NCBI GenBank assembly: GCA_016839515.1
Contig: JAEOUE010000091.1
Location: forward strand, 1-18,743
Length of the DNA stretch: 18,743 nt
Direction of reading: 5' to 3'
Origin: Candidatus Hodarchaeum mangrovi
GTDB lineage: Archaea; Asgardarchaeota; Heimdallarchaeia; Hodarchaeales; Hodarchaeaceae
Shown here: piece by piece, positions 1,471-18,743 of the stretch
How the letters are laid out: the number at the start of each line of letters is the position of its first letter
Numbering within the stretch: position 1 is the first letter of the stretch
Notes under the pieces: model-generated
What the model was told of the DNA's origin: nothing
The model's database searches: none
What the model saw: only the letters and a program-made list of their open reading frames with translations
Position numbers and translations under genes: made by a program

Positions 1471-3177
1471 TTGAAATTAAAGCAATTAACAATTGTTAAC
1501 TTATTATTATTATTTTTCCTTTCTACTACTGTAATTTATAGTAGTTTTGGATTTATAGCGACAGACACCCCAATTATTGATGGTGTTATATCAAATGATG
1601 AATATCTAGCATCTAAAAGCTTCAGTTCAGGGGATTACATGCTTTATTGGCAAATTGAAGGAGATATGATTTATTTTGGAATTGAAGTTGATACAAGTGG
1701 GTGGGTAGCTGTTGGATTTGAACCAACTTTTGCTATGAAAGATGCTGATATGGTTTTTGCATGGGTAGAAAGCAATGGAACAGTAGTAATATTTGATGTT
1801 TATGCTACAGGAAATTATGGTCCTCATCCTCCAGATGTTGATCAAGGAGGTACATTCGATATCCTTTCTTATGATGGACTTGAAGGGTCAGGAAAAACTA
1901 CCATAGAGTTTTCTCGTAAGCTAAACACTGGTGATACATATGACAAAATAATACCCACATCTGGAACTTTTAACATTATATGGGCAACTGGAACTGCCGA
2001 TAACTTTGGATTACAACACGATCGAAGAGGATCTGCTTCTTTAAATATGGAAGAGGGGTTAGTTAAGGCAGTTGTAGAGGTAGAAGATCAACCAATAGTG
2101 GATGGGAGAGTTTGGATTCCTAAGGTGGATTCAGTTGGCCCTGGTTGGATAGTAATACATAATCAAACAACTGGTGAAACATTCGGTGCCATACTAGGCT
2201 ATACTCATTTGGAAAACGGTACTAATGAAAAAATCTTAGTAAAACTCGATTTAAGTAAGAGAACAGATACATTATTCGCAATGCTTCATACAGACGCTGG
2301 GGTTATTGGAACCTTTGAGTTTCCAGGAGTTGATGGTCCAGTTAAAGATGCACAAGATAATATTATTGCACCTAGCTTTAAGATTTCTGATGTCTTGGAT
2401 AGTTCAGTTAGTGTTTCTAATCAACCTGTAGTAGATGATAAAGTTACAATTGATAGTATTGTAAGTAGTGGATTTGGGTGGATTGTCATCCATAACAAAA
2501 CTAATACTGGGACCCCAGGAACAATCCTTGGATATAAAGAGTTAGATCATGGTGTTAATCCATATATTATTGTCGAAATTGAAGAGGAATCAAGAACTGA
2601 AACCGTATTTGCTATGCTTCATGCAGATAATGGAACATATGGTTCATTTGAATTTCCTGGCCCTGATGGCCCAGTGAAGGATAGTTCTGACCAAGTAATT
2701 ACTCCAGCCTTCAATATAACTTATATATTTACTTCTTCTGTTATGATTGAAGATCAAGAAATAGTGAATGACAAAGTGACCGTAAATCAAGCTATCATTG
2801 CAGGATTAGGATGGATAGTAATTCATGCTGATAATGTAGGCAGTCCTGGAAGTATTCTTGGATACACACAAGTTTTTCACGGTGTAAATAGTAATATTGA
2901 AGTGAGTCTCTCTACATCTGATAGAACTTCTACTATGTATGCAATGTTATATACTGATGAAGATGAATTAGGTGTTTTTGAATTTCCAGGGTCTGATATT
3001 CCAGTGAAAGATGATTCGGGAAATGTAATTACCCCTAGCTTCATTATAACTAATTTTACTGAACCTACTACTACAACTACCTCAACAACTACTCTTTCAA
3101 CACCTGGGTTTACATTACTCCCTGTTTTGACTTTATTAGGACTTGCAGTGTTTTTCTTCAGGGAACGAAAGCAATAA
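1471..3177 (+). CDS. Cell-surface protein: signal peptide, DOMON domain, three ~111-aa DUF7282-like repeats, Thr-rich linker, PGF-CTERM-like anchor
   Basis: TTG start after AGGTGA. DOMON signature LYW...GWVAVGF...MKDADMVFAW...IEFSRKLNTGD...IIWA.G...H. Repeats carry GWIVIH...ILGY...AML(H/Y)xDxxxxGxFEFPGxDxPVKD. Tail STPGFTLLPVLTLLGLAVFFFRERKQ. Confidence 0.9.
   Translation: MKLKQLTIVNLLLLFFLSTTVIYSSFGFIATDTPIIDGVISNDEYLASKSFSSGDYMLYWQIEGDMIYFGIEVDTSGWVAVGFEPTFAMKDADMVFAWVESNGTVVIFDVYATGNYGPHPPDVDQGGTFDILSYDGLEGSGKTTIEFSRKLNTGDTYDKIIPTSGTFNIIWATGTADNFGLQHDRRGSASLNMEEGLVKAVVEVEDQPIVDGRVWIPKVDSVGPGWIVIHNQTTGETFGAILGYTHLENGTNEKILVKLDLSKRTDTLFAMLHTDAGVIGTFEFPGVDGPVKDAQDNIIAPSFKISDVLDSSVSVSNQPVVDDKVTIDSIVSSGFGWIVIHNKTNTGTPGTILGYKELDHGVNPYIIVEIEEESRTETVFAMLHADNGTYGSFEFPGPDGPVKDSSDQVITPAFNITYIFTSSVMIEDQEIVNDKVTVNQAIIAGLGWIVIHADNVGSPGSILGYTQVFHGVNSNIEVSLSTSDRTSTMYAMLYTDEDELGVFEFPGSDIPVKDDSGNVITPSFIITNFTEPTTTTTSTTTLSTPGFTLLPVLTLLGLAVFFFRERKQ
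2068..3048 (+). repeat. Three intragenic tandem domain repeats (about 2068-2385, 2401-2718, 2734-3048), starts 333 nt apart
   Basis: Aligned translations AVVEVEDQP / SSVSVSNQP / SSVMIEDQE through PSFKI / PAFNI / PSFII; the DNA has diverged at synonymous sites. Confidence 0.9.
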
Positions 3178-4892: not shown

Positions 4893-5142
4893 GGGTGCAG
4901 TCTCCTTTTTTTAAATAATTTTTACTAATTTGGAATTAGAGAATTTATCTTATAAGATATTATTAATTATTTGTGTTTCTTTCATTCTAAAAGACAACAG
5001 AATACTAAATAAATCTAGACATCTTTTTCATCCCATTTTTTGTAAACTCCAACAAAGTAAAATCTCTAGTTCAGGAAATTAATACGTTTATGAAGTAGCA
5101 GCTCTGTTCCATCCCAGCTGTAGGGAAAAAGAGAACTTCAAT

Positions 5143-6183
5143 CTAGCGAATCTGTATCAAAAGATTTTTTTGAGCTTTTTCAGCATGTATTATTATCTGT
5201 TCAATAATGGTTGATACACTCTCAATACTACTGATCAAACCAATACTTTGGCCAAGAAGAACAGCTCCATCAGTTATATTACCTTGATAAGCTAAATCAT
5301 ATGCTTGAGCTGCTTTAATTAACTCTTCTGAACTCATTGCAGCCTCTTGGGCTAATTTTTCTCCTTTGTTAGCAACTAAATTACGTTGTAAACTATAAGC
5401 ATTTTTCCAAAGTCGGATTGGCCCTAAAATCCCTGTTACTAACACAGTGTCTTGAGCATTCGCAGGTGGAACAACATTTTTATAGGTATCATGAAATTCA
5501 CATTCATGGGAGGCGATGAACCGTGAACCCATTGCTATTGCCCCAGCCCCAAGTGCCAATGCTGCCAGTAAACCCCCTCCTGTGGCAAATCCTCCGCAAG
5601 CAATTCTAGGTATCATGGGAAATTTCTGTTGCACCTGTTGAAGAAGCACAAGGGTACTTACTTTTTCATAAGACTGGTGTCCCCCTCCTTCACTCCCTGT
5701 GACTACTAATCCATCCACACCAGCATTTATACACTTTTCAGCTAAGCTTAATGCTGGAGCAACATGAAAAAGCTTAATTTCTGTGGTGTTCCTTAAATCT
5801 TGAAAGGTTTTGGATCGGGGTAAGATGGCAGCTGACCCTGCACTAGTAACTACATATCTACACTGCTTTTGAATATGAGGATTATCTAAAATAAATTGAG
5901 GGATTTCTGTACATAATTTATCCACAAAGGGTTCTAATCGGGATGTTCTGATGTTAAATCCAAAAGGTTTATCAGTATGCTCCACAACATAGTTCATATT
6001 TCGTTTCAGTTCGGTTACAGGATCTATATCTTTATTTAACAGACCTGGTTGTGATAGAACACCTAATCCTCCTGCTTCAGAAACTGCTACCGTCAATTCT
6101 GTAGTATAGAAAGGAGCCATTGGAGCAGCAATAATAGGATGTTTTATCCCAAGCATCTCGGTAATTTGGGTTTTGATTACCAT
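5143..6183 (-). CDS. Nitronate monooxygenase / FabK enoyl-ACP reductase family FMN TIM-barrel flavoprotein
   Basis: TQITEMLGIKHPIIAAPM, AVSEAGGLGVL, TDKPFGFN, GSEGGGH, IACGGF..GGGLLAALALGAGAIAMGSRFIASHEC, GQSIGLI. Confidence 0.92.
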   Translation of the reverse strand: MVIKTQITEMLGIKHPIIAAPMAPFYTTELTVAVSEAGGLGVLSQPGLLNKDIDPVTELKRNMNYVVEHTDKPFGFNIRTSRLEPFVDKLCTEIPQFILDNPHIQKQCRYVVTSAGSAAILPRSKTFQDLRNTTEIKLFHVAPALSLAEKCINAGVDGLVVTGSEGGGHQSYEKVSTLVLLQQVQQKFPMIPRIACGGFATGGGLLAALALGAGAIAMGSRFIASHECEFHDTYKNVVPPANAQDTVLVTGILGPIRLWKNAYSLQRNLVANKGEKLAQEAAMSSEELIKAAQAYDLAYQGNITDGAVLLGQSIGLISSIESVSTIIEQIIIHAEKAQKNLLIQIR

Positions 6184-6389
6184 TGGTCTTCACATTCTCA
6201 TATGTTTTATGGTATTTAGAGAAAGTATACGAGGATTATATTATTCAATACCTTATGTTTTTAAATATAGGAGTATTACATAAAGATTCATTGAAAACAC
6301 CGTATAAAGGAATTGAAAAAAAATAATTATTCTACTTAATAGAAATTATAATCTCGGAATTTCATAACGAAGTCTAATTTGGGTTTAAT

Positions 6390-6869
6390 ATGGATGAACA
6401 AATGAAAAATGATGATATTCTTACACGAGCCTATAAAAGGATGCACCGATATACTTGTGGGGAAGCCTCACTTCAAGCATTATTGGAATTATGGGATTTA
6501 CCCCTTGAAACTAATTCTTGGGGTACTGCGGGTTATTTAGGAGCAATTGGATCAGGTAATACTACCTGCGGACTTTTAATTGGAAGTAGTATCGCAATCG
6601 GTCTTAAATGTGGACATGGGAACCAAGGAATTCCAGAACAAAATAATGATGATAGAGAAAAAGCCATTCAAGCTGTTAATGAACTTTACAATGAATTTTT
6701 GACAAAATTTGGTAGTACGGATTGTCAAACACTCAATAAAGTTGATTTTCGAAAAGGAGAAGAAATAACAGAATGGATGATCCAAAAAGGATGGAAACAA
6801 ACCTGTGATATTTTTTTGAATTTTACCATAAAAAAATGTCAGTCAATGGTAGAAGATGGAAAATTATAA
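6390..6869 (+). CDS. C_GCAxxG_C_C family putative redox-active protein
   Basis: YTCGEASL, GAIGSGNTTCGLLIGS, FLTKFGSTDCQTL, C-terminal QTC: the four-Cys family pattern. Confidence 0.85.
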   Translation: MDEQMKNDDILTRAYKRMHRYTCGEASLQALLELWDLPLETNSWGTAGYLGAIGSGNTTCGLLIGSSIAIGLKCGHGNQGIPEQNNDDREKAIQAVNELYNEFLTKFGSTDCQTLNKVDFRKGEEITEWMIQKGWKQTCDIFLNFTIKKCQSMVEDGKL

Positions 6870-7124
6870 TTTAAATTAATAATTCCTGTGAAATTAATGG
6901 AGATCTACTAGTTCAAAAGCCATTCGATCGCTTCTGATATATTTTTTCATCTTACTTAATAGAGGAAGACCAATCCTGGGAATTTAAAACGAAGATTAAA
7001 AAGATCTATAACTAAAATCATTGAATCGAAAATTTCTACTGTTTTTAAACCCCTAAAGAGGAATGAAAAAATCTAGAATCAAAAATATCTTTTCTTCTCT
7101 TTTTAACTGGAGGGATATTTGATT

Positions 7125-8432
7125 TTAAACCTTAGGGAGTCTAATCAAACCAATTCCCGTAAAAAATGCTCCAATACCACTAATAATTGCTGTCAAAAGG
7201 ATGGTTTCAGCAAATCCATAACTAGAGAGAATATATCCTCCAGCTAAAGCCCCAAATATACCAATCGAATTTGTAATAGTAGGTAAAAGAGAATAAAAGC
7301 TATTTCGTGACTCATCGGGTATAAGATCTAAATTTAATTGATTTCGTAGAATAAATTCAAGCGCTTCAAAAATACTTGGCATTTGAAATACAAAGACAAG
7401 TCCAAGGAGGAGAAAAACGTTAACTTCAATGGGAGGGAAATTAAGATAGTATATATAGATGGCGAGGAAAAATAATGGATTAGAAAAATTTGTAGTAATA
7501 AAAATCCATAATCTATTACGTTTTAAGCGGGTAATATATTTTACAATAAAAAATTGCCACAAAACGCCTGAGGCAAAAATTAAGGCACGGATTAACGCAG
7601 TGGTATCATCCTGACCCCCTGAATACCCCTCATATATACGAAAAAGTAAGAAATTTACCCAAATGCTATTATTAGCGGCCCAAATTATAGTGGATCCAAT
7701 AAAAAATAGAAAAATCCCATGATGGGATATTAACACTTTTATGCCATTGAAAAATTGTCCAAAATAACTTCTGATCGTAATTTGATCTTTCTTATCAATT
7801 GTATCTCTAATTAAAACGATAATCAAGAAAAGAACGAAAATAAGAAAAACAAGGGAAATTAAAAACAGTATTTTGCGAGAGAAGACCTGTGCTATAACTC
7901 CTCCAAAGAGAATCGAGAAACCATAGAGTGCGTGTGTTAATATTGATCTTCGTGCTTGAAAATTTTTGTAAATCTTCCTTTGAGGGTCATCTGTGTTCAT
8001 CAATCGTCTATAATTATTATCAAACCACGCTTCTAAAGCTCCACTTTCTTGTGAAGAGGCAAAAGCAGAAATTGCGCTATAAAAGAGGAGCCCTAAAAAT
8101 GACTCAGAGATTATTAAAAGGATGAAAGAGAGAATATGAAAGATATAGGCTAGAATCAATACTTTTTGATGGCCGATTACATCCCCAAGTACCCCTGTAG
8201 GATAATCAACAATCGTAAGAATAAAAAAACTCAGAGCAAATAGAAATCCCACTTGTGTTGGTACCAAAGAATCAAGCAAAAATAAGACAATAAACATACT
8301 AGAGATGGTAAACGCAATTAATCTGATAGCGTCGAGAATTAAATAACTTAAGAGTAACGTTTCTGCCTTTTCGTCTAATTTATCGCCGATAAATGCCCAA
8401 TTGATCAATTCTCTCACTGAAGAGCCACCCAT
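7125..8432 (-). CDS. Major facilitator superfamily transporter
   Basis: About 12 hydrophobic segments; DYPTGVLGDVIGHQK (motif A-like), SGALEAW, IPDESRNSFYS. Confidence 0.9.
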   Translation of the reverse strand: MGGSSVRELINWAFIGDKLDEKAETLLLSYLILDAIRLIAFTISSMFIVLFLLDSLVPTQVGFLFALSFFILTIVDYPTGVLGDVIGHQKVLILAYIFHILSFILLIISESFLGLLFYSAISAFASSQESGALEAWFDNNYRRLMNTDDPQRKIYKNFQARRSILTHALYGFSILFGGVIAQVFSRKILFLISLVFLIFVLFLIIVLIRDTIDKKDQITIRSYFGQFFNGIKVLISHHGIFLFFIGSTIIWAANNSIWVNFLLFRIYEGYSGGQDDTTALIRALIFASGVLWQFFIVKYITRLKRNRLWIFITTNFSNPLFFLAIYIYYLNFPPIEVNVFLLLGLVFVFQMPSIFEALEFILRNQLNLDLIPDESRNSFYSLLPTITNSIGIFGALAGGYILSSYGFAETILLTAIISGIGAFFTGIGLIRLPKV

Positions 8433-8627
8433 AAGAAAGTATTTTTGTGGAATGGAAAGGATGACTTCTCGCTATAATTATTTACTTTTTTATTGTGGTA
8501 AATTTTCTACTGCTCAAAGAATATTTTTTCTCATTACCAATACACCAAACTAATTTGATGAAACTTTCTCTCTTGAAAAGTAATAACTCTGTACCAAGTT
8601 CAAATTCTTAATCAAACGATAAAATGT

Positions 8628-9290
8628 GTATCAGAAGTGTATATCAATGAGTCACAGCCTTCATGATCATCTAAGTGTTGTACAGTTTATGCTTTAGAAC
8701 ACTGTTCAACGGTGGGAGAATTAGTTGTAATGTGCCAAAACTATCTATTTCCTGATGTCACTCCATCAGCATTATAACTTCATTATACTGACACAACAGG
8801 CAAAGCTATACTAATAAACATTCAAACAAATGGATCATTAGCATTTAAAATGAAAAAGAATGAAATAAATCTTGTATCGAAGAATTTCAACCTTCTTAAT
8901 CCTAATTCGGGGAGATATCCCTACTCATGTTATAACACTATAATTTCTATGTTATAACCATTAAACATGCAAGAAAATATTTCATTGAATGAACTCGAGG
9001 AAATTCTTAATGCAGTTCTTGTAGAAGGCCCTAAAGGAGAGACGAATTCAGTTCAGACTCTCTATAGGACAATTTTTGACCTGAAGAAAAAATAAATCTC
9101 TTTATATTACTAACTTGATTTTGAGAAGATAATAAACCTGAATTTAGAGACTAAATTAACTGAAGGATTTCATTATTACTTAATGAGTAAGCTGTTTCCA
9201 ACTTCTTCCTCTATTACCTATCCAGAAGGAGCTACAGAAAGTAAAGCCCCTCTACTAGACCAACTTCAGGAGGATCAATTACTAGCATAA
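8628..9290 (+). pseudogene. Ntn-hydrolase (choloylglycine hydrolase / acylase-like) pseudogene, 5'-truncated
   Basis: Absent from the ORF track. One frame reads YALEHCSTVGEL...AL*LHYTDTTGKAILI...NGSLAF...LVSKNFNLLNPNSGRYPYSCYNTIISML*...EILNAV..EG...TLYRTIFDLKKK*ISLYY*LDFEKIINLNL...LMSKLF, with stops at 8664 (TGA) and 8775, 8955, 9093, 9111 (TAA). Resembles the LExCxTVxE, HxxDxxG, xTNF and TxYSxxxDL motifs of this family as I recall them. Confidence 0.7.
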
Positions 9291-9683
9291 TTTTAGCATT
9301 GATACATTATGAGATTTGCCAAATGAAAGATCATAGAAAAAAAATAATTTTTTGAAAGTTAAAACCGGTTTATTTATACCATAAAGCAGGAAAAGTACAA
9401 TAACTTACCTGTAAAAATTTTTAAATGAAAATTTTACAAAAATTTAATTAATTAGGATTGAAAAAACTTAATCTGAGGATGTTTAAATCAAGGATGTTTG
9501 AAAGTAGTCCATTACATAATTAGTTGCAAGATTAGAAGAAGCTAGGGTGTAGAACAAAGAAACAAAGACAAATTTACCTAATTTAAAGACTAATTACTCC
9601 TTAAAATTTTATAAAGGAGTGTGTTTTATGACAAAGGAAATTATCATCCTTGAACAGGAAAATGCTCGAATCCAATAACTGAG

Positions 9684-12488
9684 ATGAGATCAATGAAAAT
9701 GAGTAAACAACTAGTAAATCCGATGATATTGAAGAAAATAGTTCTCTTATTCTTGTTAGCATTTACAGGTCTTTCAACTTTGTACTTAATCCCAACACCA
9801 CAAAATTCTCCTCTAGCTTCCGAAATACCTTCAATAAATGAAAATTTTACTCACCCTACATTTTCCTATCAGGTACATATCCCTATATTTATTGATGATA
9901 ATTCTGATTTTACCACATTAGGCTTTTCAGGAAATGGTACTCCAACAAATCCATTTATGATTAATAATTATAATATTACAGGTTCCTCTTCTGAAACCTT
10001 AATCGAAATTCGAAATACTGATCTTTATTTCAAGATAATTGATTGCTTTCTAGATCGTGGAAAATATGGGATAGTCTTTACTAATGTCACAAATGCAGTT
10101 GTTTTTAATAATACAATCCAAAGAAGCAAGGGCTTAGTAGGACAAGGAGATGCAATTGTTTTAAATTTATGTTATTACAGTAATTTTACACATAATCGAA
10201 TAATAGGCCATGATCACATTGCATTTAGCGTTGATAATTCATATTTTCTTGATATTTCCTATAATAACATAACCCATAATGATTATGGAGGTATTTATCT
10301 TGGTAATTCACATAACAATACACTAACCAATAATTATCTCCTTAATTCCTCTAGGGATGGGATTAATCTAGGGGATTCAACAGACAATCTGATTTCGGGA
10401 AATATTCTTGAAGAACAGGGAAAAGGTATTTACTTATACAACGCTAATGAGAATAACATAACGTGTAATCGTCTTGGGAATATCAGTGATAACGGTATTC
10501 GTATCGAAGCCTCGCATTCCAACCAACTAATTAATAATACTCTAAATGCAACTGCAAGGAATTTAGTTCTCATGACTGCTCCAAATAACACTATTCTCGA
10601 TAATAAAATATCTGTTTTAGGCATCGCTATATCAGGAAGTACACTAAAAGACCATTTGCAACGTCAAGTAGCAAACAACTGGGTTAATAATCGACCACTC
10701 ATTTTTTGGCAACATATTAATGGAGGAGTGATACCATCAGATGTAGGACAGGTAATACTTATTAATTGTACAGATATTGAGATTTCCAAACAAAATCTAT
10801 CAAATCTCACAAGTGCTTTACAAGTTTTATATTGTACTGATATGAAAATTATTAATAATACAATTTTTGATGCTGATTTTAACGGTATCTACCTATATAA
10901 TACTAATAAGAGTCAAATTCATGGGAATAATATTTACCGTACTGTCTCAAATGGACTTTATGTTGTTTATTCTCATAACAATTCATTTATTGATAATACT
11001 ATTTCTGAGGGTTTAGATATCAGTTTATATGTGTGGGGATCTCATCAAAACAATTTTTCGCAAAATGTGATTTCACGTTCTTTTGGGTGGGGTATACTTC
11101 TTGGTCAAGCGAATAACAACACAATGATGTTAAATCGAGTTGAGAACTCTTCATATGAAGGTATATTCTGCTATGAATCAAAAAATAACAACATAGAAAA
11201 AAATGATTTTCTCTTTAATTATATTGGATACCCTCAAGCATTTGATGATCAGACAAATCCTGATTTTAAAAATATCTTTTCACATAATCATTGGAATGAT
11301 TGGACTATTCCTGATAATGATTTAAATCGGATAGTAGATCAACCATACGATATTGAGGGATTAGCTAATAACCAAGATTTATATCCATTGACTGTGCCTT
11401 ATCTTCAATACGTACATAAAATAACAAAACCTACTCTAGTTCATCCCAATGGAGGAGAGATTTTATCGGGATTAACTTCAATTCAATGGAGTATGGCCAA
11501 TGATTCGTGGGATCACAAAGTTAGTTATACCCTTTATTATTCTTCTGATAATGGCTCATCATGGATATTACTTCAAACCAATCTAACTGTAACAACTTAT
11601 ACTTGGGATACCAATACAGTTGCTGATGGCTCAGAATATCTCATTCAGATTATAGTTAACTGCTCAGAGGGATTGATAATAAGTGATTATTCTAATAGTC
11701 CCTTTAAAATAGAAAACCTGAAGCATGCGTTATCGATACCTCATGTTATTTATCCTAATGGCGGAGAAAGCCTTACTGGCCAAGTAACCATCCAGTGGAA
11801 TAATGCTATGGACTCTTGGAACCACCTGGTACTATACACTCTTTATTATTCTGCAAATAATGGATCTACATGGATTTTACTCATATCTGATTTAAATTCC
11901 AATTCTTATATCTGGAATACTCTAATTATTGATGAAGGAGCAAATTATCTGATCAAAGTAGTAGCCACTTGTACAGGTGATTTGACAATCGCTGATATTT
12001 CTGATAATACCTTTAGCGTGACACGAGTCTCTCATCAAATTTCACCTTTGATAATATTGTATCCGAATGGTGGAGAAGTCATTTCAGGAAGTATTACAGT
12101 CCTTTGGATTGAGGTTGGTGATTCACTCAATCATTCAATTATCTATTCTCTATACCTCTCCTATGATAATGGAGTCACCTGGTTTGAATTAACGAATAGT
12201 CTAACATTACCCACTTATATGTGGAATTCTACAAGTGTCGCTGATGGTGACAATTATCTGATCAAGGTTATCGCTAGATGCTCGGAAGGATTAGAAATCG
12301 AAACTATTTCTGATGGTACATTTACTATTCAAAATGTCAGTAAAACTACCACAGCGTCTTCTACTGGGCCAATAGACACCTCAACCACCACAACAATGTC
12401 TAAACAAAAGAGTCCAGGTTGGTCTTTTCTTATTGTAATCCTTTCAATACTTAGCCTTTTAAAATTCATGAACCGTAACAAATTCTAA
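9684..12488 (+). CDS. Surface protein: right-handed parallel beta-helix (NosD/PbH1 repeats), three Ig/FN3-like repeats, Thr/Ser linker, PGW C-terminal anchor
   Basis: N-terminal hydrophobic segment; GNGTxxNPFxI, repeated GIxLxxSxNNxIxxN units, NHWNDW..PD.D.NRIVD.PY.I.G..NQDLYPL; tail KSPGWSFLIVILSILSLLKFMNRNKF. True start may be a later ATG. Confidence 0.9.
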   Translation: MRSMKMSKQLVNPMILKKIVLLFLLAFTGLSTLYLIPTPQNSPLASEIPSINENFTHPTFSYQVHIPIFIDDNSDFTTLGFSGNGTPTNPFMINNYNITGSSSETLIEIRNTDLYFKIIDCFLDRGKYGIVFTNVTNAVVFNNTIQRSKGLVGQGDAIVLNLCYYSNFTHNRIIGHDHIAFSVDNSYFLDISYNNITHNDYGGIYLGNSHNNTLTNNYLLNSSRDGINLGDSTDNLISGNILEEQGKGIYLYNANENNITCNRLGNISDNGIRIEASHSNQLINNTLNATARNLVLMTAPNNTILDNKISVLGIAISGSTLKDHLQRQVANNWVNNRPLIFWQHINGGVIPSDVGQVILINCTDIEISKQNLSNLTSALQVLYCTDMKIINNTIFDADFNGIYLYNTNKSQIHGNNIYRTVSNGLYVVYSHNNSFIDNTISEGLDISLYVWGSHQNNFSQNVISRSFGWGILLGQANNNTMMLNRVENSSYEGIFCYESKNNNIEKNDFLFNYIGYPQAFDDQTNPDFKNIFSHNHWNDWTIPDNDLNRIVDQPYDIEGLANNQDLYPLTVPYLQYVHKITKPTLVHPNGGEILSGLTSIQWSMANDSWDHKVSYTLYYSSDNGSSWILLQTNLTVTTYTWDTNTVADGSEYLIQIIVNCSEGLIISDYSNSPFKIENLKHALSIPHVIYPNGGESLTGQVTIQWNNAMDSWNHLVLYTLYYSANNGSTWILLISDLNSNSYIWNTLIIDEGANYLIKVVATCTGDLTIADISDNTFSVTRVSHQISPLIILYPNGGEVISGSITVLWIEVGDSLNHSIIYSLYLSYDNGVTWFELTNSLTLPTYMWNSTSVADGDNYLIKVIARCSEGLEIETISDGTFTIQNVSKTTTASSTGPIDTSTTTTMSKQKSPGWSFLIVILSILSLLKFMNRNKF
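11415..12335 (+). repeat. Three intragenic 103-aa repeats, period 309 nt (starts 11415, 11724, 12033)
   Basis: Consensus H...PNGGExxxGxxxxxWxxxxDSxxHxxxYxLYxSxxNGxxWxxL...YxWxT...G.xYLI....C. Confidence 0.9.
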
Positions 12489-14938: not shown

Positions 14939-15382
14939 CTAATCAGTTTCGTATTCACCAACAATAAAAGTAGCATGATACGAAGTCTTTGGAATAATCT
15001 CGGTTGAGATAGGATATGGCTTTAGCTCCTTAAACTTTGCATAATATTCCATAAAGGAAGCTTTATGTGAATTACTTGAATTTAAAATAAAATTTCCTAG
15101 ATCCTGACCATTAAATTCTATATTAATCATTAATGAAACTGTTCCTTCCCATATACAGATTACATCACTAGGACATCTTGAATCTTCTAATACATCAAGA
15201 AATTTTAGTTTAATTCCATGATCCTTTATAACTACTGAGTCTCCAACGTAAAGAGAAAATTCGGTGCCGATTTCACCAAAATTATCAGCTACTGATTGTT
15301 GCAACATAAAATAAGCAATCGAGGTTACACTGATAATAGTAAATAAAGAAATGAAGATAAATAACATTCGTTTTGAACTCAA
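14939..15382 (-). CDS. Membrane-anchored or secreted protein with DSRCPxxVxCxWxG motif, function unknown
   Basis: TTG start after AGGAG; N-terminal TM helix; EDSRCPSDVICIWEG and LKPYP motifs of a conserved uncharacterised family. Confidence 0.8.
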   Translation of the reverse strand: MSSKRMLFIFISLFTIISVTSIAYFMLQQSVADNFGEIGTEFSLYVGDSVVIKDHGIKLKFLDVLEDSRCPSDVICIWEGTVSLMINIEFNGQDLGNFILNSSNSHKASFMEYYAKFKELKPYPISTEIIPKTSYHATFIVGEYETD

Positions 15383-15452: not shown

Positions 15453-15871
15453 TAACGCGGAACATCCTCAGAATATCTAATATCATTTATTGGATAGTAA
15501 ACGAACTATGCTTCGGTTTGAAAAAAAGGTGATTTAAGAATAGCTTTACTATTTTTTTGATAATAATCATACTACATTTCTGAAAATAATCCATTATCTG
15601 ACTATTAAAAAGAGATATTGGCCGAACCTTTCAGATAATCTATGAGAAATATACATTCACACCCCCTCATCTCACAGAGTAAAGAAAAGAAGGAGATTGC
15701 TTTGTTAAAAAAAGATATAACTTTTAACTAAAAAAATACCAAATTATTATTGAATATGAAGAATTAACTAAATATGGAAATACAATTATACAGGAAATAA
15801 ATGGATTTTTCAAATCTCAGCTGAAGAGCAAGCTTTTATTCGGAAAGATAGGATAGAGGTGTTGTTATTTA

Positions 15872-16075
15872 TTGAAAGTGGATGATTTATTAAAAGATCT
15901 GAAAGGTAAGAAAAAATTGCGTGAGATAAAATTCAATGCTTTGAGAGAAACTGATCGGGCTGAATTATGGTATTATATGGGGCAGTTGACTATTCTCGAC
16001 TATGTAATCAAATACTTGGAAGGGGAAACTTTCCCAAAGAAGACAACCATAATGGTAAACAATGATATATCATAG
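15872..16075 (+). CDS. Small hypothetical protein (67 aa, predicted helical)
   Basis: GAGGTG RBS before TTG; protein-like amphipathic sequence (ELWYYMGQLTILDYVIKYLEG); ends convergently with the acyltransferase at a T8 tract. Confidence 0.6.
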   Translation: MKVDDLLKDLKGKKKLREIKFNALRETDRAELWYYMGQLTILDYVIKYLEGETFPKKTTIMVNNDIS

Positions 16076-16093
16076 AAAGAAACCACTTTTTTT

Positions 16094-17002
16094 TCAATCT
16101 AATTTTTCCAACAATTCTGAGCTAATAATTTGCTGAAGCTCCCAGGGAGGAACTCGGATGAGTTTAAAAAGCAATTTATTAAAAGCATCTGTTTTATTTG
16201 AGGGAATAGTAATTTTATCGACCGTTGTCCCTAAAATATGTTCAAGAATTGTAAAAAAGGATTTCTCTTGGATAATCATCTGATCTCGGATTCTAACCAT
16301 AATTTCATCAGTGATTTCTCTAGCTGTGGAGAAAAAAACAGGATCAGTATCGTTCCAACCATTTTTACGAACATATTTATGCCAATAAATAGGTGGACCA
16401 AATGAAACAGAAATATATGAGTTAAATGTTGGAATTATTTTACCCCGCGATAATGCTTCAGCTGCCCCATGAATATAAGTGGGGATGACTGGGACTCTTC
16501 CATTAAGGGCTAAAACAAGTCGACCAACTCCAGTTTTTCCTTCTTTGATCAGATTGAAATAATCATGATAGGGAGTTCCAACAATCCGTTTCCCCTGGGG
16601 AGCGATAATAATACCTATCCCCTGCTTCAATAATTTAGCAGCATAGTTTAATGCTAATTCAGGCTTTTTAGGATAAATGGGAAAAGCACCAACATGAGGA
16701 GCTAGACGAAAAAACCAATTCTCTTGCATGATATTTCCAGCACCCATTAGAGCAATACGAGTTCTGGGTCCACGGGGAACTACAACAGCACTGGCCGCGA
16801 TAAAACCATCAAGATGACTTCGATGGTTAATACAAAAAATAATTGGGGTTCCTTCGGGAAACCTATTTAAATAATGTCGATTATGAACCTCCAATTTAAA
16901 AAATATACTCAGAAAACGTGGAATAACAGCAACAGGAAAAAAAGTGTAAAAGGCTCTATGGATAAAAGACCATTGAGCCATTGTTGTTTCTGGGACTTGC
17001 AT
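16094..17002 (-). CDS. Lysophospholipid / 1-acylglycerol-3-phosphate acyltransferase family (PlsC-like)
   Basis: Block I NHRSHLD (HX4D, 16808-16828), block II GAFPI, block III variant IAPQGKR, GKTGVGRL, block IV VPVIP, SFGPPI. Confidence 0.88.
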   Translation of the reverse strand: MQVPETTMAQWSFIHRAFYTFFPVAVIPRFLSIFFKLEVHNRHYLNRFPEGTPIIFCINHRSHLDGFIAASAVVVPRGPRTRIALMGAGNIMQENWFFRLAPHVGAFPIYPKKPELALNYAAKLLKQGIGIIIAPQGKRIVGTPYHDYFNLIKEGKTGVGRLVLALNGRVPVIPTYIHGAAEALSRGKIIPTFNSYISVSFGPPIYWHKYVRKNGWNDTDPVFFSTAREITDEIMVRIRDQMIIQEKSFFTILEHILGTTVDKITIPSNKTDAFNKLLFKLIRVPPWELQQIISSELLEKLD

Positions 17003-17175
17003 AGGTGTTCACTAAGGGATTTATACAATGAATTACAAAAAAATCTTTAATCTTTTACGTATATTGCTAGATATAATCCTTTGTAATAACTAGAGAGTTA
17101 TTTTAGTTTTGTGGTTCATGAGTAAAAGAGAAATAACAAGAACTGTTTTAGGAGAAATCAAGGAGATCTAATTTA

Positions 17176-18003
17176 ATGCAGCACGAAGAACGTCATATTG
17201 CTAGTTCAGATAATTTAAAACTTTTTTTACAAGTTTGGAAACCAAAAGAGGAACCAAAAGGTATTATTCAGATTATTCACGGACTTGGAGAACATTCAAA
17301 CCGATACATCAACGTTATAGAGACCCTTATTCCAGCAGGTTACGCTATATATGCTTCTGATTTAAGAGGACATGGGAAAAGTGAAGGTCCAACAATGTTT
17401 GTAAATGAATTTGATGATTATAGAAAAGATCAGCAACTTATCAGCAAAATAATTCAGGAAGACTACCCAAGAAAGCCAAAGTTTTTGCTTGGACATTCAT
17501 TAGGAAGTACGATAGCTGTTCTACTTGATAATTTAAATTCCTTTAATGGTTTGATACTTTCCGCATCTGGAATGAAGGCAGGTGGATCTGTACCAAGTAT
17601 TCTTGTCAAATTATCAGCTATACTGGCGAAAATAGTTCCTAAGCTGAAAGTAAGTACTTCAATAAAAGGAGAAGATCTATCAAGAGACACTGTAGTAGCA
17701 CAAGGTTATATGGAAGATCCACTAGTTTATAAATCAGCTACCGTTCGATTAGGCAATGAGTTCTTCAAAGCATTAGAAAAAACACATTCCGTTTTAGAAA
17801 GGATCAAAATACCATGTTTAGTAATATCAGGAGAAAATGACACTCTTATGTTGGGAGCTAGTGAAGTTTACGAGAAGATCGGGTCACAAGATAAATCCCT
17901 GAAAATAATAAAAGAGGCACGACATGAAGTATTTAATGAAATCGAACCCTCTAAATCTGAGGCCCTTTCTGAGCTTCAAATGTTTCTAGACAAACATTTA
18001 TAG
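17176..18003 (+). CDS. Alpha/beta hydrolase, lysophospholipase / monoacylglycerol lipase family
   Basis: IHGLGEHSNRY, DLRGHGKSEG, nucleophile GHSLG, LSRD...YMEDPLV, GEND (Asp), RHEVFNE (His); AGGAG RBS. Confidence 0.92.
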   Translation: MQHEERHIASSDNLKLFLQVWKPKEEPKGIIQIIHGLGEHSNRYINVIETLIPAGYAIYASDLRGHGKSEGPTMFVNEFDDYRKDQQLISKIIQEDYPRKPKFLLGHSLGSTIAVLLDNLNSFNGLILSASGMKAGGSVPSILVKLSAILAKIVPKLKVSTSIKGEDLSRDTVVAQGYMEDPLVYKSATVRLGNEFFKALEKTHSVLERIKIPCLVISGENDTLMLGASEVYEKIGSQDKSLKIIKEARHEVFNEIEPSKSEALSELQMFLDKHL

Positions 18004-18200
18004 ATGTCAAATCTCCATTAATCCTACTTCTGAAGTCTATTATCAGCAACTTGGGCAATTCCCCTCATAAATTTTTATAACATTGTAATTCAATAATCTT
18101 TTCAACAATAACATCCATAATATTACCCTTATTAATAATTAATCCAGACTCCCATCTTTGATTAGAAAAAAAGCATTTATAAGCGTAAAAAGTGGTATAA

Positions 18201-18743
18201 ATGAAAAAAATAAATTTACAATCAGCTAGCTTAATTTTAATTGATGATGGAGGAGTCATGAACGATAATAATGCACGAAGTCATCAATGGAAGGAATTAA
18301 TTGCAGATTATTTTATTCCAATTTATGGGGGATCGAGATCGAGATGGAAAGAAGCAAATCAGTATGCTTTGAATAATTTATTAAGTAGATATAATAAGAC
18401 TATCACGGAAAACCCTCTGGTTGATTTCAATAGCTATTGGAAAATAGAAATGACTCATTGGATAAAAGATATGTTTAGAATAGTAAATATTGACCTTCCA
18501 TCGGAGAAAAAACTCTTTAAATTAGCTAAAAATGCTGGAGAATGGATTACTCCACGAGTAAGGGCAGCTTATCCAGGAGTAGTTAAAACTATAGAAACCT
18601 TATCTGATAAAGGATTTCAATTATGCACTGCTTCTGGAGAAGTATCATGGGAACTTAATGGTTATTTAACAGGAATGATGATTGTAGAGTTTTTCACAAA
18701 GTTATATGGACCAGATTTAATTAACACAGCAAAAGCAAGTACC
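18201..18743 (+). CDS. HAD-superfamily hydrolase, partial (runs off the window)
   Basis: Not in the ORF track. Open frame MKKINLQSASLILIDDGGVMNDN...AYPGVVKTIETLSDKGFQLCTASG...FFTKLYGPDLINTAK; motifs I (DxGG variant), II and III Lys present. Confidence 0.88.
   Translation, partial: MKKINLQSASLILIDDGGVMNDNNARSHQWKELIADYFIPIYGGSRSRWKEANQYALNNLLSRYNKTITENPLVDFNSYWKIEMTHWIKDMFRIVNIDLPSEKKLFKLAKNAGEWITPRVRAAYPGVVKTIETLSDKGFQLCTASGEVSWELNGYLTGMMIVEFFTKLYGPDLINTAKAST

Follow-up and report, generated by a model that had tools for sequence, protein, structure and literature searches.

Probable lineage-specific juxtaposition of a genus-restricted acyltransferase and a monoglyceride-lipase-type hydrolase in a Hodarchaeales archaeon

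The divergent acyltransferase (AT) and lipase (LIP) genes near the end of the 18,743-nt stretch of DNA analysed here (the window) are, on balance, probably genes for two genuine enzymes of fatty-acyl esters that came to lie side by side in this lineage without forming an obligate module, and the window yields no conserved remodelling module. The layout given in the original prediction, with the two genes head-to-head over a 173-bp spacer and a HAD gene next on the LIP strand, was recovered, the open reading frames of AT and LIP ending where predicted:

16094-17002, minus strand: AT, acyltransferase of 302 aa (PF01553)
17003-17175, 173 bp: divergent spacer between the starts of AT and LIP, read from the sequence
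17176-18003, plus strand: LIP, MGLL-type alpha/beta hydrolase of 275 aa
18201-18743, plus strand: HAD-IA-like hydrolase, 5' part (first 181 codons, open at the contig end)
16295-17074: segment without a counterpart in the related locus L059 (AT residues 1-236 and 72 bp of spacer; blastn and tblastn)

The spacer is rich in A and T. The junction between AT and LIP is not an assembly artefact, because it is bridged by contigs from three public runs of three studies with 0-7 differences (X3, 15687-17852; X5, 16876-18443; X8, 16769-17469), one of which runs may be the source sample. An AT-deleted variant of the junction was not found in four runs at >=85% likeness, which is not evidence of its absence. 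For this genome, the probability that an alpha/beta hydrolase gene falls <500 bp from a random 900-bp gene was 0.015, so that a lone AT-LIP adjacency is mildly unusual, not compelling.

AT was placed in the GPAT/LPLAT (AGPAT) fold superfamily by Pfam score (PF01553, 51.8 bits, cut-off 23) and by fold match. Its HX4D dyad (H60-D65) lies in the stretch N59-H60-R-S-H-L-D65, which is invariant in 28/28 members of the family alignment from which invariants were taken, as is Q136 of block III (PQGKR, 135-139). The position aligned with the Arg of FLDR in block II of TmPlsC shows no conserved Arg, and a C-terminal helical extension starts at about residue 223. In PlsC, the block III consensus (F)PEGTR and the block II Arg bind the glycerol-phosphate acceptor. 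An AF2 model of AT (pLDDT 89.9, pTM 0.89) was matched by Foldseek to GPAT1 (8e4y, 2.1e-7), TmPlsC (5kym, 5.6e-7), squash GPAT, PatA and LpxM, with a probability of 1.00 and TM values of 0.38-0.53. Assignment of AT as an equivalog of PlsC was rejected (TIGR00530, 24.7 bits; cut-off 102.95). AT also fell below the Aas model cut-off. The earlier label "PlsC-type" was therefore too specific, since AT fails both the TIGR00530 cut-off and the block III consensus, with a more canonical PlsC-like gene and PlsY elsewhere in the genome; at the level of superfamily, the acyltransferase, lipase and HAD identities held (PF01553, PF12146 and the HAD orthologue of L059, respectively).

LIP matched PF12146 (Hydrolase_4) with E 7.5e-61, and carries the nucleophile motif GHSLG at 106-110. 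In alignments with solved monoglyceride lipases, S108, D222 and H250 fall opposite the equivalent residues, which are catalytic in human MGLL. Against the PDB, LIP matched monoglyceride lipases at E values of 2.5e-36 to 1.5e-35, among them human MGLL (2.5e-36), M. tuberculosis MGL (6eic, 1e-35) and 6qe2 (1.1e-35). No signal-like stretch was seen by eye at the N terminus. Homologues numbered 3189, many of them bacterial, with the closest at 89-90% identity, and a scan of genome contigs with LIP gave bacterial relatives only, at 27-33% identity. The HAD reading frame scored 17.2 bits against HAD_2 (cut-off 23.8) because it is truncated at the contig end; its full-length orthologue in L059 (L059:9047-9787, 78% identical) passes, with 41.6 bits for HAD_2 and 39.5 bits against 29.4 for TIGR01509 (HAD-IA). 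The missing C-terminal part was located in the same genome (G000:C184:2777-3097). Motif I reads DDGGV, with no Asp at +2, where DxD is expected.

Conservation was assessed by L059, which is syntenic with the window at ~84% nucleotide identity (amino-acid identities: MFS 83%, NosD 81%, DinB 86%, CysK 86%, LIP 90%, HAD 78%). LIP and HAD are intact there; AT has been reduced to a remnant of 92 nt corresponding to window 16204-16294 (83.7% identity) that adjoins LIP, the spacer is represented by its LIP-proximal 101 bp only (17075-17175), and, among the ORFs of L059, none in the interval from CysK to LIP encodes AT. Because this remnant adjoins LIP, the two genes were already neighbours in the common ancestor of G000 and L059, if not earlier, and their adjacency has persisted for some time. 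In 40 relatives, LIP and HAD homologues were never side by side, and neither was found beside AT elsewhere in the genus. The contigs of the nearest AT orthologues (G019, G011 and G008, at 71, 70 and 78% identity, respectively) lack an MGLL-type gene, and no AT relative above 78% identity was found among 5.8 billion clustered proteins. AT-LIP-HAD is thus not retained as a divergon or operon in related genomes, and since the pairing occurs in one lineage only, whose closest relative deleted AT, it is no fixed lipid-remodelling unit.

Members of the AT family turned up in a single genus (10/201 Asgard genomes, 1-3 full-length copies per genome). When 1.84 billion representatives were searched with a profile, 17 proteins scored E<=1e-30 and 675 scored E<=1e-10; ten matches from the 224-92-bit range, some of them probably family fragments, included six with names, of which five were from archaea (with Asgard-lineage labels, or Woesearchaeota) and the sixth from Patescibacteria. 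In the ESM Atlas, the family's own cluster (80 members, Archaea) was followed by Acidobacteriota PlsC-like clusters at 0.95, a resemblance that we treat as a lead only.

Neighbours were counted at 37 full-length family loci. An MGLL-type gene adjoins AT at one of these, the window itself, and lies 4-6 kb off at two more, so the adjacency set out in the original prediction as the point on which a module would stand or fall is not conserved. FadD-like ligases, scoring 416-455 bits against long-chain-fatty-acid-CoA ligase models, are adjacent to AT in 11/37 (eight immediately upstream on the same strand, three divergent), and a 515-aa lipase-like hydrolase is present in eight. Alpha/beta hydrolases of five types occur <3 kb from AT in 12/37, against an expected 1.27 (derived from the 23 alpha/beta hydrolase genes of G000, the sole background), a count that amounts to about five events as kin are not independent. 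FadB is found in 3/37, thiolase, MaoC, SCP2/AFOR/Fe-ADH and TetR genes occur too, and the second family copy of G000 (C111) faces a MaoC dehydratase. Because the neighbours are FadD-like ligases, alpha/beta hydrolases and beta-oxidation genes, a role of the family in fatty-acyl metabolism is plausible, and to this extent the earlier proposal stands. Within the clade of the window's AT, L014 carries a convergent 253-aa alpha/beta hydrolase and L013 a 299-aa one 1.6 kb off, and some alpha/beta hydrolase lies within two genes in 3/3 evaluable loci; this recurrence hints at a real functional coupling of AT and hydrolase, not pure chance.

In the reading that we favour, LIP would be a cytoplasmic MGLL-type serine hydrolase freeing fatty acids from monoacylglycerol- or lysolipid-like esters, and would travel with the HAD-IA-like gene in this lineage. 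AT would combine the LPLAT/GPAT fold and HX4D dyad with an altered acceptor-binding block. Most of its paralogues directly follow a FadD-like long-chain acyl-CoA ligase and precede a lipase-like hydrolase, so AT most likely uses acyl-CoA to O-acylate an acceptor of the lyso-glycerolipid or glycerol-phosphate type, a predicted acceptor that need not be LPA. The two enzymes may plausibly belong to one network scavenging exogenous acyl esters, by hydrolysis, activation by FadD or FakAB, and then beta-oxidation or re-esterification, with AT and LIP probably gained, lost and moved independently. The age of the AT-LIP adjacency, the alpha/beta hydrolases at all three evaluable loci of the AT clade and the HAD genes near it in L013 and L015 count against this reading.

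The conserved ester-lipid unit of the genome is a FakA-FakB-PlsY cluster away from the window, not the window pair. G000 also holds a more canonical PlsC-like gene (C153; block III PEGAR), which at 59.9 bits is likewise below the TIGR00530 cut-off of 102.95, as well as GGGPS, CarS and G1PDH-type genes. A more far-reaching reading, which we advance tentatively as a possibility, is that a glycerolipid acyltransferase dependent on acyl-CoA, with the GPAT/LPLAT fold and marked by PQGKR and the C-terminal helices, arose and was multiplied within the genus, in an ancestral order of FadD, AT and convergent lipase, and that together with FakA-FakB-PlsY and the PlsC-like gene it would allow fatty acids taken from outside to be built into ester or mixed ether/ester lipids; the window's AT-LIP pair would then be a rearranged remnant.

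The original prediction, a co-regulated AT, LIP and HAD module for Lands-cycle-like deacylation and reacylation of ester or mixed ether/ester membrane lipids, now seems unlikely. The short shared spacer of the divergent pair, the alpha/beta hydrolases near AT in its clade and across the family, HAD genes near AT in L013 and L015, and the presence of PlsY, FakAB and the PlsC-like gene beside GGGPS, CarS and G1PDH-type genes in the genome all speak for it. Against it, L059 deleted AT and 72 bp of spacer and kept LIP-HAD intact, orthologues at 70-78% identity have no LIP nearby, the exact pair occurs at a single family locus, and LIP and HAD homologues lie apart elsewhere; the hydrolases in the neighbourhood belong to five unrelated types (LIP and that of L014 share 24% identity, E 3e-4), and the HAD is a generic HAD-IA-like protein with DDGGV replacing DxD.

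We also doubt that AT acylates an acceptor other than a membrane glycerolipid (a storage lipid, a fatty alcohol or wax, an amino-lipid as for OlsA, or a small molecule) and that its LIP neighbour is coincidental. The replacement of the block III Glu by an invariant Q, the unconserved block II Arg, scores under the PlsC and Aas model cut-offs, and the presence of another, more canonical PlsC-like gene to handle LPA are consistent with such an acceptor, and AFOR, Fe-ADH and SCP2 genes in four loci suggest aldehyde or alcohol chemistry; by fold and profile, however, AT is matched best by enzymes that acylate glycerol phosphate or LPA (GPAT1, PlsC and squash GPAT), and the MFS, FadD, AT and PlsC-like genes of L048, in a row on one strand, fit two successive glycerolipid acylations.

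It is highly improbable that the contig came from contaminating bacteria in the bin and that AT-LIP is an ordinary bacterial lipid gene pair: the bin carries 6.09% contamination and many bacterial LIP homologues reach ~40% identity, but among 201 Asgard genomes the AT family was seen only in the ten of this archaeal genus, and every source-named AT homologue among the 67 listed (many are without a name) bears an Asgard-lineage name. Beyond the 90% group, the best non-self LIP matches carry Asgard labels; the contig itself shares synteny with others of the genus, encodes DUF7282 and DOMON genes, and has a uniform GC of 0.29-0.38. The contig is archaeal, as had been thought probable, and its host is an Asgard archaeon, with the closest homologues labelled Hodarchaeales or Hodarchaeota.

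Whether archaeal relatives of eukaryotes can produce fatty-acyl ester lipids bears on the origin of bacterial-type eukaryotic membranes. Restricted as it is to a single genus, the AT family is of limited relevance to the Asgard archaeon from which eukaryotes arose. Concrete, assayable enzymes are at hand in this acyltransferase family, with its links to FadD-like ligases and lipases, and in the conserved FakA-FakB-PlsY cluster, and sister lineages with and without AT offer a natural comparison for lipidomics.

PlsC and PlsY homologues in Asgard archaea have already been published (Villanueva 2017; Coleman 2019, PMC6431249; Manoharan 2019, PMC6737245), and the bearing of such bacterial-type acyltransferase genes on the lipid divide, and on lipids of ester or chimeric type, has been discussed (PMC6431249, PMC6737245). 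That work covers PlsC and PlsY orthologues; a text search of the literature found neither the 300-aa genus-restricted family nor its FadD and lipase neighbourhoods.

Among known systems, LIP is closest to the monoglyceride lipases (human MGLL, 3JW8/3HJU; M. tuberculosis Rv0183, 6EIC; 6QE2), with which it aligns over its full length at E ~1e-36, with similar length and with the GxSxG nucleophile, Asp and His in register; it is far under the cut-offs of NCBIfam models for lysophospholipase L2, BipL and others, and shares ~45% identity with other MGLL-type genes of the genus.

AT resembles PlsC, GPAT and LPLAT enzymes in its PF01553 domain, HX4D dyad, N-terminal helix before the core and block IV-like PVxP, and its fold matches PlsC (5KYM), human GPAT1 (8E4Y) and squash GPAT (1K30) at Foldseek E values of 2e-7 to 6e-7. 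It differs in its invariant PQGKR, where the PlsC consensus is PEGTR, in an additional helical C terminus of ~80 aa, in matching the PDB by sequence at no better than E 0.006-0.06, and in its restriction to one genus.

In E. coli, Aas and LplT re-acylate lysophospholipids, with the acyltransferase fused to an acyl-ACP synthetase and an MFS protein as flippase. Among NCBIfam models, AT matches the Aas-type PRK08633 best (E 6.8e-6), its paralogues lie directly behind an AMP-binding fatty-acid ligase (eight loci) or divergent from one (three), and L048 has an MFS gene upstream. Unlike in Aas, however, the genes of the AT family are separate, without fusion, and the best-scoring model makes the ligase a FadD-like (CoA) one; the MFS protein of L048 scores best with Tet-type efflux models and not with LplT, and the window's AT adjoins neither ligase nor flippase, with no PF00501 (AMP-binding ligase) match among the 14 window ORFs scanned.

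The window carries the features listed below, and the places given for the genes in the original prediction were matched exactly by ORF positions.

1471–3177 (+): surface-type protein with DOMON and three DUF7282 repeats, and a C-terminal hydrophobic tail
9684–12488 (+): surface-type NosD/beta-helix protein, 934 aa, with three C-terminal repeat units of ~100 aa each and a C-terminal hydrophobic tail
14939–15382 (−): 147-aa ORF whose N-terminus includes a hydrophobic stretch; no Pfam/NCBIfam match
15872–16075 (+): 67-aa ORF facing AT in convergent orientation; its end is 19 bp short of the AT stop
16094–17002 (−): AT, 302 aa; PF01553 Acyltransferase, 51.8 bits (Pfam)
between AT and LIP: 173-bp spacer, read from the sequence
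17176–18003 (+): LIP, 275 aa; PF12146 Hydrolase_4, E 7.5e-61 (Pfam)
18201–18743 (+): HAD, 181 codons, open at the contig end; HAD_2, 17.2 bits, sub-threshold (Pfam)

The 18,743-bp contig belongs to a 4.0-Mb bin (G000, 91% complete, 6% contaminated), and its GC is 0.29–0.38 along the whole length. The AT-spacer-LIP junction is spanned near-identically by contigs of three public runs (three studies; one run is a possible source sample), so the adjacency is not an assembly artefact. The host had been taken for a probable archaeon, and homologue labels and same-genus synteny bear this out against a bacterial contig: the named sequences among 66 listed strong AT homologues carry Hodarchaeota/Hodarchaeales or other Asgard labels, Hodarchaeales lies within Promethearchaeati (NCBI taxonomy), and the gene order of the window is common to same-genus contigs.

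Flanks of ±6 kb were fetched around all 36 other full-length AT-family loci of the genus (37 including the window), and a simple greedy caller supplied the ORFs, which were then clustered. An MGLL-type gene adjoins AT in the window only; two loci from another paralogue clade (L017, L018) have one 4–6 kb from AT on the same strand, and none was found on the contigs of the closest AT orthologues, from G008 (78%; 2.2-kb contig), G019 (71%) and G011 (70%). HAD homologues of this type adjoined LIP homologues in none of 40 relatives. The question is decided by L059, a metagenome contig that shares synteny with the window at ~84% nucleotide identity (amino acid identities: MFS 83%, NosD 81%, DinB 86%, CysK 86%, LIP 90%, HAD 78%), in which window positions 16295–17074 (AT residues 1–236 and 72 bp of spacer) have no counterpart; from the 3′ part of AT only 92 nt persist there, beside intact LIP and HAD. 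This small lineage therefore inherited the AT-LIP adjacency from its ancestor, and AT could be dispensed with in the L059 lineage while LIP-HAD was retained; the protein database, with LIP relatives at 89–90% identity and no AT above 78%, is consistent with this loss. The original prediction was correct in observing an AT and LIP pair, both enzymes being real, intact and lipid-related by homology. Its co-regulated AT-LIP-HAD module is not supported, the adjacency being confined to 1 of 37 AT-family loci, and the head-to-head arrangement is not conserved across relatives; it is lineage-specific, with AT lost in the nearest relative.

The 67-aa ORF is kept in L059 as a 76-aa ORF (7503–7733) in DNA 81.8% identical, and survives there with the flanking AT and 147-aa gene both gone. 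The 147-aa ORF is 74% identical to positions 15583–16053 of L014, a locus of G011, 4.7 kb from the AT orthologue. Window positions 8433–9683, 1.25 kb between divergent MFS and NosD genes, hold no ORF of at least 80 aa and have no blastn counterpart in L059, which is elsewhere syntenic.

LIP aligned over its full length to solved monoglyceride lipases (human MGLL, 2.5e-36; M. tuberculosis 6eic, 1e-35; 6qe2, 1.1e-35), with S108 (GHSLG), D222 and H250 on the corresponding residues, and its assignment as an MGLL-type serine hydrolase is well supported; its substrate would be an acyl ester. NCBIfam lysophospholipase models scored far under cut-off. The family is very large (3189 matches, many bacterial at ~40% identity). 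The HAD-like gene predicted on the LIP strand has a 246-aa, 78% identical L059 orthologue, which passes HAD_2 and the HAD-IA model TIGR01509; the sub-threshold score in the window arises because the gene is cut by the contig end, the C-terminal remainder being found on another G000 contig (C184).

More interesting than the AT-LIP-HAD arrangement is the AT family itself, a multiplied family of LPLAT fold that is restricted to the genus, has a changed acceptor block and is regularly associated with a FadD-like ligase and lipase-like hydrolases. Among 41 relatives, AT matches occurred in 21/21 other same-genus genomes, with 1–3 full-length copies in 20 and a weak partial match only (E 5.6e-14) in G010; other families outside the genus gave weak matches only. 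Phylum-wide, 10 of 201 genomes (59 genera) had AT at E≤1e-30, all ten from the host genus, and the AT profile gave 17 matches at E≤1e-30 against 1.84 billion representatives. Ten matches were examined from the 224–92-bit part of the list, of which six were named, five archaeal (Odinarchaeota, Promethearchaeota (two), Woesearchaeota, Hodarchaeales) and one Patescibacteria. A keyword search found no literature joining Hodarchaeales with acyltransferase.

Recurrent and nearby neighbours of AT-family loci were scanned with Pfam and NCBIfam. A FadD-like long-chain-fatty-acid-CoA ligase (416–455 bits) was found in 11/37 loci, immediately 5′ of AT and co-directional in 8 and divergent in 3; since this link turns up in each of the family's two main halves on a quick ML tree, it suggests that FadD-AT is the ancestral arrangement. 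A lipase-like alpha/beta hydrolase of 515 aa (Pfam matches: Palm_thioest, PGAP1, LCAT, Lipase_2) occurs in 8/37 loci, in every case on the strand opposite to AT and convergent with it, abutting the AT 3′ end in six and 0.9–2.5 kb off in two. Alpha/beta hydrolases of five types lie within 3 kb of AT in 12/37 loci, which, as the loci are kin, amounts to ~five events; if the 23 such genes of G000 (three Pfam models) were placed at random, 0.034 would be expected at each locus and 1.27 over all 37, and the excess, with its background from one genome, is indicative and does not amount to a formal test. All three evaluable loci of the window's AT clade have one (MGLL-type in the window, 253-aa Abhydrolase_1 in L014, 299 aa in L013). 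FadB-like 3HCDH+ECH genes are near AT in three loci, thiolase, PEMT-like and TetR regulator genes turn up near family members, and a MaoC dehydratase lies beside the second AT copy of G000. An AFOR/Fe-ADH/SCP2 set in four loci hints at fatty aldehyde/alcohol chemistry. In these loci (L024, L026, L035, L036) aldehyde:ferredoxin oxidoreductase, Fe-alcohol dehydrogenase, an SCP2-like gene and a 719-aa protein without a Pfam match form a conserved block adjoining AT, and the FadD-like ligase is present too in three (L024, L035, L036). At L048 (G014, contig C203), 1–4940 (+) is a row of MFS transporter, FadD-like ligase, family AT and a 234-aa PlsC-like acyltransferase, placing two acyltransferases behind one fatty-acid ligase. 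AT would most likely catalyse acyl-CoA-dependent acylation of a lysolipid-type acceptor, most likely as part of a network scavenging exogenous acyl esters.

G000 has archaeal pathway genes (PcrB/GGGPS, 43.1 bits; CarS, 132.8 bits; two G1PDH-type Fe-ADH_2), PlsY (79.3 bits), and on contig C153 a 226-aa, more canonical PF01553 gene (70.7 bits; TIGR00530, 59.9 bits). Contig C239 (locus L079) carries at 5112–8606 (−) a row of alpha/beta hydrolase (259 aa), FakA-like kinase (344 aa; YloV 221 bits, FakA 155.9 bits), DegV/FakB (295 aa; 176.6 bits against 99.7) and PlsY. In 6/6 loci fetched from the genus DegV is beside PlsY; the FakA part is clear in five of them and faint at the locus edge in one, and DegV and FakA flank PlsY in five loci of another family (24 PlsY loci fetched overall). 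The row is the conserved, putative fatty-acid-to-ester-lipid unit of this organism. In bacteria, Fak-PlsY is a route from free fatty acids through acyl-phosphate to acyl-glycerol-phosphate. This chemistry, from Fak to PlsY, is described in PMC13400652. The PlsY frame of L079 (5112–5765, −) is open for 219 aa with no ATG/GTG/TTG near the 5′ end, and the first listed start leaves 74 aa only; a non-canonical start is possible. Relatives G025–G039 (family f4) have 6–13 PlsY-family (PF02660) matches per genome, a striking multiplication of a predicted bacterial-type glycerol-phosphate acyltransferase in archaea.

On Asgard acyltransferases, Villanueva 2017 is cited in the papers discussed here. PlsC/PlsY orthologues were reported in Lokiarchaeum and Heimdallarchaeota LC_2 with no specific eukaryote link (Coleman 2019, PMC6431249), PlsY and PlsC in Loki/Thor genomes with discussion of possible chimeric lipids (Manoharan 2019, PMC6737245), and the same picture was restated by two 2026 publications, one in EMBO Rep (PMC13400652) and a review in EMBO J (PMC12993045), both giving archaeal lipids only for the cultured lokiarchaeon. 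Keyword searches found no relevant literature on an Asgard monoacylglycerol lipase or an archaeal Fak-PlsY cluster, such genes being of a kind that supplementary tables may list.

AT carries the HX4D dyad (H60-D65). As a single sequence it matched solved structures marginally (TmPlsC, E 0.058), and the family profile gave GPAT1 at E 0.0062 and PlsC at E 0.014. Its AlphaFold model (pLDDT 89.9, pTM 0.89) matched human GPAT1, TmPlsC, squash GPAT, PatA and LpxM in Foldseek (E 2e-7 to 2e-4, TM 0.38–0.53), with an extra C-terminal helical part from ~residue 223. Invariants in a 28-member family alignment are NHRSHLD, G105, P135-Q136-G137-x-R139, G158/G160/R161 and P171/P174/H178/G179. AT belongs to the GPAT/LPLAT fold superfamily, in a distinct subfamily. 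Of the "PlsC-type HX4D acyltransferase" first proposed, the motif and the superfamily stand; a PlsC equivalog is ruled out by TIGR00530 (24.7 bits; cut-off 102.95), the marginal structure matches and the altered block III. The PlsC consensus has Glu in block III, where the AT family has an invariant Gln, Q136 being constant in the 28-member alignment, whereas the shorter PlsC-like gene of G000 itself reads PEGAR.
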